Assembly: GCA_002633005.1 (NCBI GenBank)
Contig: NMRA01000640.1
Location: 62,001 to 126,000, forward strand
DNA length: 64,000 nt
Direction of reading: 5' to 3'
From: Phoronis australis
Lineage: Eukaryota > Animalia > Phoronida
This document shows, one piece after another, positions 7,101-63,864 of the stretch; within the stretch, counting starts at the first letter, position 1, and each line of letters starts with the position of its first letter. The notes below the pieces were generated by a model. That model did not search any database, was not told the DNA's origin, and was given only the letters and a program-made list of their open reading frames with translations. A program made the translations under genes and the position numbers.

Positions 7101-10100
7101 TTTAATCACCTTAGACACTATTCACGGCAAAGAAATCTGGCCATTTCTATTGAATGGTTCGTGGCTGTGTTGACACAAATAGCGAATAAAGGGTGTAACG
7201 TTCATTGCTACAGTACAGAACAATTTCAATGTTTTTCACTGTGCAAAAGTGGTAAAGGAGTCCACTGACTCAGAGACTGGGCGCAAGCTGTTTCAGATGT
7301 TTTAAACTGACCTCTTAAGTCTTGTTTTGCCCAGTAAGTAGTAGAGTTCAGTACAAAACACCAACCGCTAACGCACAGTCTCTGAGTTAGTGAATTACTT
7401 TACCTAAGACAAAAAGTATTCGGACAAAATACCGTTTCCCAACAAAACCACTAATTCTGTTAGCACAAAATGTGAGGTAATAACTATTCGGGCTTTTAAG
7501 TACAGTCTGGTTCTGCAACCGAACATGACCCGCGAGTTATGACTGACGTTCAGGGACATTTAATGTAACTTTCGACCACAGTCTTAAGCCAGTGTATGAC
7601 AGTCAGCTTTCACCGATTTACTAGTGTAATGCAATAAAATGCGCACACGTCAGATCCAATTGGATGCCAGGTATCACCCGACTACGTCCGACTTATAAAA
7701 ATGGTCAAGTGGACGAACTAAAACAGTAGTACCGCTGAACTTTCTACAAGTTAAGCGAAAACACGACTTATATATATCCGACTGTCGTGAGCTTTAGCTT
7801 TGTTGGAGGACATAAAGGCTGAACTTTGAACTACAATTGAAACGACGTGGTTCGTTGCTGCAGTTAATGGCCTGGTTATCACCCCCTTTTTAGCATGAAA
7901 AGTGAAAATGTTGACAAGAGACAGGATCAGTTCTCCAAGGTGAACCCTTCATGGCTTAGACGGCCAATAAGGAGTAAGTGAGAGAATCATCATATCCTTT
8001 TCCCTTTACTGTGCTTATGTCAACAAATAGGCGCTTGTCAAGCACTGTTGGTAAGGCCAAAAGTAATCAGTAATGGTCTGTACCCGACTCATTTTGCGAC
8101 CTGCGCTCACTGACCACAAAGGCACAAAAGAAGGCAAAGCAAGGATTGAAACGCGACCATTTACTGAGATAAGAAATTAAAACATTGCGTAATTACTCCT
8201 CGTCTTAGGTGTATTTTCTTTTTCTGAAAAAATACACCACCAGCAAACCAAATTTAAAAACATCAACCAGATCCAACTATTATTTTGCCTGTGCACGGCC
8301 TAAAATTTCATTTTCTACAGTTTCAAACAAGCATGTGAAAGTCTCAACCAAAATAGTGCACGGGCACCTCTACATTCAAGTCTATCGACTGATTCCTCAC
8401 TACATTTCTTGCAGTTCTCTCCAAAATGTTAACACATCTTCAAGCAAAACTAGAAAACATCTTCAATATTATTAATACGCAATACCACAATATTAATTAA
8501 TTTTTGAAAATTGTATTTTATCAGCTGGCACTCCTTACCCATAACGCACTCCTGCACGGTCTCGTTGTCGAGGACACGCGACTCCTCTGTCCAACGAGAC
8601 AACACCGACGGAATGCTGGACAGTATTCCACTACCGCTGCCACTGCTCAGGTCAGCAAAGGGGTCCTGCCAAAGACAGATCATTGTGCATGAATGTGCTG
8701 GATTATGACACACACAGAACTATGAGTTAATAGAGAGGTCACACTATCCCTTGTCAATTGCATCAACCAGAGAATGGATTCACGTTGAGTGGAAGTGACA
8801 ACTTGTCACTTTGCAAAATTTTCAAAATGTTACGGGTAAGTCTAATTGGGAAAACTTTTTAGACTAAGTGCTTTCCACAGGCATAAGTCACATTAACTTT
8901 GCTTTTGTGAGATATGTGAGACACAATATTAGTAGTGAGTTCTATAAATATTTCAGAATTTGTGAAAAAAGGAACCACCACTTGAAGCAGCTTAAAATGT
9001 CCTAAGGAAAGACTAAGTAATCGCTAACTACTTGGATTACATTTTATCCCAGGATTCTCTAAATGTCACAGAATTTCAAACCAGCAAGTTTTGTCACAGA
9101 ATGTCACCATGTCGCAGAGAATCCATTCTCCAATCGACCAATCACCATCAACCCTCAATCGTTTTCTTGTTAAAACCCAAGATCAAACACAAATCACTAA
9201 AGTGGGCGCATTCATGAAAATTGTGGTCAAGTTCACATGATCCAGTATTTTTGTAAAATGGTTCACATAATTTTCATTTCACCCAATGTGCTTACACTGA
9301 ACAGGTCCTCAAACATGCTGACGTCCTCATCAGAGCGTAGCACACGTAGGTCGTCGTTGGCGACCACCAGTCGTGTGTGACCTGTCATGCTGTGTCCACC
9401 CAGTGTGCTGGTCAACTGTAGGATGTCGTGTGCAGCTGACTGACCAATGAGCCTAGAAGGGAGGGTGCAAGCATGTACATTAATGCTAACTGAATAAACA
9501 ACCGTAAGATTCGAAACAGAATTGCTATCCATCCAATTGGCATAGTGGTGGCTTCATTGGTCGTTTGACTATCCCTCCAGCCAGCAGAAGTCACTGTTGC
9601 ATAGTTCTCCAACTGCCAAACAAGGCTAGGTTGACCATAAGTCAAAATCTTATCCTACCCCTCAATGAGTGATGTCAAACACATTGTTAAACTTGACTTG
9701 TGGTATTGTTGCCGTTTTTAATACATTTCTGGGCACAGTATTGTTGCCCTGTTCCCCTTACACAGTGACGACTGTTAAGTAACACTTTTGATGTTTAAGG
9801 ATACATACAGGATGCTAGAAAAATTTCGAAATTTTAATGAACAAACTTAAGAACCACACATTTCAAACATGGACGACCAGATTAACTTTCAGATACTATT
9901 GGTTTGATCGTTCACTTCTCTCCAAAACACTGTTAGAAATTGTTTTAAAATGTTTTACTTTTTCATGCGAAGACAATTGAGGAAATTGTTACAGTGTTTT
10001 GGAGATTTCATCTTGAACATTTATACAAAGTGAAAGTTTGACACATTTTAGATTCCACTATTTTGCCACGAATGTACATTTTCCTTTTGATAATTTGACT

Positions 10101-63864: not shown

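Follow-up and report, generated by a model that had tools for sequence, protein, structure and literature searches.

Does the gene for a very large HECT ubiquitin ligase, HUWE1, serve in this animal as the host of a whole array of working small nucleolar RNAs (snoRNAs)? The original prediction, made for the 64,000-nucleotide stretch of DNA analysed here (the window), placed six families of snoRNA-like motifs on the host strand between positions 7923 and 61910, and self-comparison together with profile searches confirmed them. The host is HUWE1, as had been claimed: the minus-strand exon at 43144-43890 resembles animal HUWE1 (top named match Lottia, 60%), a colinear chain of exons from tblastn supports the identity, and the Pfam domains DUF913, UBA, WWE and UBM were detected in five of the seven exons tested. 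With splice sites chosen by hand among candidates, the model comprises 56 exons and 55 introns (54 GT-AG and one GC-AG) and reads through 3519 aa with no stops. The protein adjoins molluscs and annelid-like loci in a FastTree phylogeny, with weak support (0.76), and the animal would accordingly be a lophotrochozoan, probably one that evolves slowly.

1 to 63864, minus strand: HUWE1 host gene, 56 exons, 3519 aa, both ends beyond the window

Three stranded, species-labelled RNA-seq runs of 151-nt paired reads (X1, X2 and X3), each sampled at approximately 18-19%, gave splice joints that agree with this model in both regions where reads were aligned. Between 10700 and 17900, 259 of 341 X1 reads reached 99% identity or more, and the five listed joints all fit the HUWE1 model; between 43000 and 62600, two of the 15 joints shown fit model introns, the remaining joints deriving from repeats. 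At intron 55 (window position 2579, minus strand), which lies outside the RNA reads aligned, the stop-free model uses a GC donor. Since the window contains neither end of HUWE1, the count of snoRNA-like loci given below is a minimum.

Every copy of the six families was found on the minus (host) strand. Box C/D loci number four in family A and five in family B, and box H/ACA loci four in family C and two each in families D, E and F, so that the predicted counts of 4+5 and 4+2+2+2 held once duplicates were collapsed. The total is 19 snoRNA-like loci, or 23 copies with four extra ones in duplicated blocks. The loci occupy introns 4, 7, 8, 9, 11, 14, 16, 19, 21, 26, 28, 30, 37, 40, 41, 44, 45, 46 and 49 of 55; these are 19 different introns with no exon overlap, and the claim of never more than one element per intron stands in the 56-exon model. 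When loci were placed at random, weighted by intron length (estimated for collapsed introns), 19 separate introns were reached in about 1.1% of 20000 trials. A spliced host with snoRNA-like loci on its own strand, one per intron, is what characterizes a multi-intronic snoRNA host, and the 19-locus array in HUWE1 is a confirmed observation. Its co-production from one pre-mRNA, as proposed, follows from this anatomy and from the RNA-seq splicing.

The duplicated blocks are 92-99% identical to their neighbours and were read as assembly duplicates because of the N bases or N runs at their junctions. The four extra copies are most likely such duplicates and were collapsed in the count. The blocks are probably haplotype or gap-filling duplicates, and would break automatic gene models.

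20329-21019, 36668-40381, 41773-43101, 43664-44837, 46747-48888 and 52836-58825: tandem duplicate blocks, most with exons, N at junctions

When boxes C and D and a terminal stem were required and rRNA played no part, scanning recovered exactly the nine C/D loci on the minus strand, and two matches on the plus strand. A guide-aware C/D scan found eight of the nine (B3 was missed) against a null mean of 0.43, and a generic H/ACA scan found seven of the ten H/ACA loci plus one unrelated match per strand. No convincing twentieth locus emerged in the window from the C/D and H/ACA scans. The window gave no Rfam match at gathering level, nor any miRNA at that level (let-7f-2/miR-98 in human HUWE1 introns had been cited in the original prediction), and the sub-threshold matches, to the SNORD55/39 clan, Afu_294 and SNORD59, were all weak at 22-32 bits. 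Small-window Rfam scans of the H/ACA loci returned generic weak H/ACA matches and nothing better. Current Rfam thresholds thus miss a 19-member array entirely.

The box C/D loci are as follows.

13538 to 13616, minus strand: A1, C/D, SNORD55/39-type D guide, intron 44; RNA coverage begins here
12316 to 12400, minus strand: A2, C/D, SNORD55/39-type, intron 45
11695 to 11777, minus strand: A3, C/D, SNORD55/39-type, intron 46
7921 to 7997, minus strand: A4, C/D, SNORD55/39-type, intron 49
49686 to 49760, minus strand: B1, C/D, SNORD59-type D' guide, intron 14
46421 to 46495, minus strand: B2, C/D, SNORD59-type, intron 16; followed in the intron by host-strand reads
31081 to 31154, minus strand: B3, C/D, intron 26; D' guide with one substitution, possibly decaying
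29345 to 29419, minus strand: B4, C/D, SNORD59-type, intron 28; box D preceded by an additional 12-nt match
28298 to 28371, minus strand: B5, C/D, SNORD59-type, intron 30

Targets were sought in a metazoan-type 18S and a plant-type partial LSU sequence (types assigned by reading of the sequences), which come from eukaryotic contaminant contigs and are not the organism's own, the LSU reference being without its 3' third. No rDNA was found in viral contigs, and no additional LSU contigs in five genomes. Prokaryotic reference genomes contain eukaryotic 18S rDNA, mostly one plant-type sequence, as contamination in at least 65 stretches (L001-L065). Box C, box D and the terminal stem are present at all nine C/D loci, and at eight of them at least 10 nt complementary to this heterologous rRNA adjoin box D or D', the B3 guide being substituted. 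Family A pairs with LSU rRNA over 13-14 nt, its D+5 base falling on a C in a sequence context that we take to be that of the human 28S C2791 position. Its 18-nt guide and box D are invariant in all four copies, with flanks at background identity. In family B, 13-14 nt of B1, B2 and B4 and at least 10 nt of B5 are complementary to 18S. The human targets given in the supplement of PMC6984369 are 28S C2791 for SNORD55 and 18S A1031 for SNORD59. The likeness to both RNAs had been predicted, and guide fits as well as weak Rfam matches bear it out. These matches, to the SNORD55/39 clan and SNORD59, score 22-28 bits against gathering scores of 35-45, and families A and B are filed as predicted functional equivalents of SNORD55/39 and SNORD59, below Rfam membership. 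Like the members of the SNORD55/SNORD39 clan (CL00057) and SNORD59 (RF00273), they agree in guide position, guide sequence and D+5 target, but unlike them they score below gathering level and are hosted in HUWE1, in four and five copies. In B4 (29345-29419, minus strand) the 12 nt before box D match the 3' end of 18S, close to the decoding site, and a one-off version of this match occurs in B3 (31081-31154, minus strand), possibly representing a second guide gained in two copies.

The box H/ACA loci are listed next.

61778 to 61911, minus strand: C1, H/ACA, SNORA8-type, intron 4
59447 to 59581, minus strand: C2, H/ACA, SNORA8-type, intron 7; variant H box
53494 to 53627, minus strand: C3, H/ACA, SNORA8-type, intron 9; duplicate at 56119-56252
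51717 to 51850, minus strand: C4, H/ACA, SNORA8-type, intron 11; 3' arm of first pocket changed, variant H box
57962 to 58092, minus strand: D1, H/ACA, intron 8; duplicate at 54590-54719
19882 to 20017, minus strand: D2, H/ACA, intron 37
42968 to 43102, minus strand: E1, H/ACA-like, intron 19; duplicate at 41798-41930, variant H box
36927 to 37061, minus strand: E2, H/ACA-like, intron 21; duplicate at 38983-39117, variant H box
17345 to 17475, minus strand: F1, H/ACA, intron 40; RNA coverage begins at the element
16075 to 16205, minus strand: F2, H/ACA, intron 41; zero intronic reads

The hairpin-hinge-hairpin-ACA fold was recovered at seven of these ten loci by the generic scan, and at C2, E1 and E2 by individual folds. 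The H box follows the strict ANANNA form in six and is variant in C2, C4, E1 and E2. In family C the second pocket forms 8+3 pairs, with the target uridine 15 nt from the box, at all four loci, and the first pocket forms 6+3 pairs and is altered in C4. The two pockets fit two 18S uridines 25 nt apart, the first of which lies 25 nt downstream of the A targeted by family B, and this 25+25 nt spacing is that of human A1031, U1056 and U1081. In human 18S these positions are assigned to SNORD59 and SNORA8 (PMC6984369 supplement). Pockets for both U1056 and U1081, the mark of SNORA8 (ACA8, RF00393), are thus found in family C, in keeping with the predicted likeness. No match at the RF00393 gathering score was obtained for C1, and because that score is not reached the family is labelled SNORA8-type and is not counted as a putative RF00393 member. 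Unlike SNORA8 itself, it is hosted by HUWE1 and not TAF1D, and is present in four copies. Families B and C, nine of the 19 loci, would guide to one 50-nt stretch of 18S, and offer a system for asking why such guides were amplified.

Targets of the other H/ACA families are tentative, the candidates for D, E and F scoring at or near the level of shuffled rRNA. D1 fits 18S U119-like and LSU ACA61-like sites, and the first pocket of E1 an 18S U218-like site. An 18S 3'-end target was weighed for family F, but another 18S site scored best. No target was assigned to the first pocket of F or the second pocket of E. Boxes and guides had been said to be conserved while stems covary; the first part stands, with the nine C/D loci complete and within-family mean core identities of 0.67-0.82 (about 0.5 in flanks), tempered by the H box count and by some degenerate-looking copies, and the second is weakly supported. 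In family C, six of 28 pairs show double changes, a number equalled by 39 of 500 shuffles, and covariation in families F and E was no better than in shuffles. The first hairpins of C, D and E are alike in sequence at the upper-stem base, which hints that these families may have a common origin with changed pockets; alignment z values among C, D, E and F, mostly 0-5, are too low to establish one.

Coverage by RNA-seq reads rises abruptly at two of the five loci examined, A1 and F1, in two of the three runs. In the A1 intron, depth in X1/X2 passes from 2.95/3.29 upstream to 18.5/15.5, 14.6/8.2 and 10.4/9.2 downstream, and six X1 molecules end at 13602, beside box C (13611-13605). In the F1 intron it passes from 0/0 and 0.12/0.06 upstream to 7.7/6.5, 4.0/7.7 and 1.5/5.8 downstream. 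There was no step at F2, A2 or A3, and none anywhere in run X3. Downstream of B2, intronic positions have 8-15 reads and the following exon 12-13. Among the aligned 151-nt paired reads, no ends of discrete mature snoRNAs were seen; standard RNA-seq often loses mature snoRNAs. We interpret both steps as marking RNAs whose 5' ends are shielded by snoRNPs and which have long 3' tails, either trimming intermediates or SPA-like RNAs. In their coverage they resemble SPA RNAs, the SNORD86 cSPA and snoRNA-retaining transcripts, since it starts at an intronic snoRNA and runs 3' (PMC11028025), and here they occur at both a C/D and an H/ACA element. The steps may instead reflect an alternative 3' splice site just upstream of A1 and F1, given that, above A1, the joints of the repeat-rich exon had been excluded and that the exon above F1 lay outside the stretch examined. 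Parts of intron 42 (14536-15604, minus strand) also have low host-strand coverage of 1-4x, and no snoRNA was found there.

It is likely that the 19 elements are rRNA guides excised from the introns that hold them, that they multiplied between nearby introns, and that HUWE1 was an early host of a SNORA8-type RNA; most likely the gene functions as a multi-snoRNA host whose array arose through cis-duplication. On this explanation snoRNPs would assemble on HUWE1 pre-mRNA, the RNAs would be released from spliced introns by debranching and trimming, and the predicted guides would direct methylation and pseudouridylation of rRNA. Families would have grown by copying between nearby HUWE1 introns, a step suggested by the clustering of copies along the gene (C in introns 4-11, F in 40-41, A in 44-49), their conserved cores and their unrelated flanks. 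Duplication in cis is a known source of snoRNA paralogs (PMC2653536). Against this explanation count the missing Rfam gathering match and mature ends, covariation near that of shuffles, and the weak targets of D, E and F.

A narrower reading, in which most of the 19 copies are decaying duplicates and the rest still work as guides, seems to us improbable. It draws on the substituted B3 guide, the changed first pocket of C4, the variant H boxes of C2, C4, E1 and E2, the lack of intronic reads at F2 and of a step at A2 and A3. Retention of both boxes and the terminal stem at every C/D locus argues the other way, as does the invariance of guide and box D in family A beside flanks at background, and the absence of reads or steps is offset by the frequent loss of mature snoRNAs from such libraries.

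The arrangement had been placed "in this lineage", which proved too narrow when HUWE1 introns were compared across other genomes. The comparison covered 51 HUWE1 loci from one scan, a partial sample centred on exon 14, most loci stopping short of the A region. Six of them (L100, L108, L109, L112, L113 and L114) have a two-pocket RNA of SNORA8 type in a HUWE1 intron, always on the HUWE1 strand. The two-pocket descriptor, tuned after matches had been seen, finds five window copies and these six loci, with none in 41.9 Mb of null sequence. L100 was found by a profile from the window only (E 0.0035), and L112 and L113 carry the same RNA in an intron equal to window intron 14. A model from seven sequences, with L108 not in training, finds L108 and L109 weakly (E 0.02-0.1). 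On inspection L108, L109 and L114 have both pockets, the H box and the ACA, in the counterpart of window intron 19. The covariance model did not detect L114, whose alignment to family C is poor (z 1-3). Since L108 and L109 are identical and L100, L112 and L113 are 76-84% alike, the six loci represent three lineages. L114 groups with chelicerates in the tree (0.98), and L108 is a long branch among arthropods. L102, of the same lineage as L100, is 56-62% identical to well-covered named bilaterians and nested in none of them, and our guess is that this lineage is non-bilaterian.

At complete introns the RNA was found in two of 12 loci at site 14 and in three of five at site 19 (L080, L092, L108, L109, L114). 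In the part examined, none was found in the other 45 loci. Rfam did not detect the SNORA8-type RNA when 12 other HUWE1 loci were scanned, and L112 scores 14.7 bits against RF00393 (cut-off 38). Neither A- nor B-type guides turned up in the loci of other animals, most short of the A region, and candidates of C/D or H/ACA type were not in excess there. In the chelicerate-like locus a further HUWE1 intron contains another H/ACA-like fold, with both an H box and an ACA (L114:7673-7816, plus strand). In the arthropod-like L108, the sole intron in about 4000 codons (reading frames of 1247 and 2768) holds the SNORA8-type RNA.

These finds suggest an old partnership between HUWE1 and the SNORA8-type RNA, in which HUWE1 probably hosted it early in animal evolution and the association passed on by common descent. 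If so, a lophotrochozoan-like animal, arthropods and a lineage farther off would all have kept the guide in HUWE1, a stability of the gene and not of the intron, and the L108 intron would be a case of an intron retained for its RNA. The 45 loci lacking it in the part examined, and the different introns used between lineages, tell against so ancient a link.

Could the array also serve HUWE1 itself? Assembly of snoRNPs on the introns might tune HUWE1 splicing or yield long snoRNA-ended RNAs, in a feedback like that of SNORD86 and NOP56. We think this doubtful. HUWE1/Tom1 does degrade unassembled or excess ribosomal proteins (PMC5026473), as the original prediction stated, intron coverage after A1 is as deep as exon coverage, as for SPA RNAs (PMC11028025), and the association recurs in four lineages. 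However, junction counts downstream of A1 (5-11 in X1/X2) are not above those upstream (9-19), giving no sign of continuation into exons, 45 of 51 loci have no such RNA in the part examined, and HUWE1 is not among the hosts in the human table of PMC8176728. Broad expression alone accounts for host choice in PMC3511168, and HUWE1 most likely became a host through broad expression and richness in introns, a tie to the function of the ligase being unneeded. A functional tie to ribosomal-protein quality control is a hypothesis. We likewise hold unlikely the combined reading that HUWE1 hosted the SNORA8-type guide in the ancestor of most animals (in vertebrates it would later have moved to TAF1D), that the RNA kept otherwise dispensable introns in compact genomes, and that the long snoRNA-ended RNAs of the array tie snoRNP supply to ligase output.

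Independent entry of SNORA8-type RNAs into HUWE1 in each lineage, with no ancient association, is quite unlikely. The RNA does occupy different introns (4, 7, 9 and 11 in the window, 14 in L100, L112 and L113, 19 in L108, L109 and L114), and snoRNA mobility is well documented, the pairing of snoRNAs with hosts being thought to change over long periods (PMC3511168, PMC6984369). It is nonetheless improbable that one guide was inserted into one gene three or more separate times, and the window itself directly displays movement from intron to intron.

Neither HUWE1 as a snoRNA host nor its old partnership with such an RNA was found described in the literature searched (including PMC2817437, PMC2655684 and 10.1101/736371), subscription papers and genome annotations lying largely outside that search. 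The human expressed-snoRNA table in the PMC8176728 supplement has no HUWE1 rows and eight TAF1D rows, and bears out the stated position of human SNORA8 in TAF1D. The supplements of PMC3511168 and PMC3349704, as far as they extend here, are empty on HUWE1 as a host, which is weak evidence for PMC3511168 in that it also contains no SNORA8 accession. In chicken, RPS8 and ATP5B host the SNORD55/39-clan and SNORD59 types (PMC2653536). TAF1D/JOSD3, with SNORA8 and seven others, is like the window in having one snoRNA per intron on the host strand and cis-duplicated paralogs (PMC2653536, PMC8176728). Multi-snoRNA hosts and cis-duplication are thus already known; the novelty lies in HUWE1 as host, in how large the array is, in SNORA8-type RNAs recurring in HUWE1 of distantly related animals, and in the coverage steps. 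Among vertebrate multi-snoRNA hosts, GAS5 and UHG/SNHG1 also carry one snoRNA per intron on the host strand. Unlike these and TAF1D, the host in the window is a very large HECT ligase with 19 loci in six families.

That the motifs are transposon fragments or assembly artefacts, as the dispersed repeats and duplicated blocks of the window might suggest, is very improbable and already largely refuted, since true repeats attract deep two-strand reads with loose ends while bins holding only snoRNAs and exons attract host-strand reads alone, all 23 copies lie on the host strand, and the guides match rRNA. Hairpin repeats at 55288-55449, 58651-58812 and 62052-62211 were rejected as snoRNAs on account of deep two-strand reads. 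Three related elements of 0.6-0.8 kb with terminal inverted repeats (31752-32556, 47537-48103 and 56665-57422) are MITE-like and draw abundant RNA reads from either strand. At 5425-5739 and 7251-7404, introns hold long imperfect palindromes that are probably small transposon relics.
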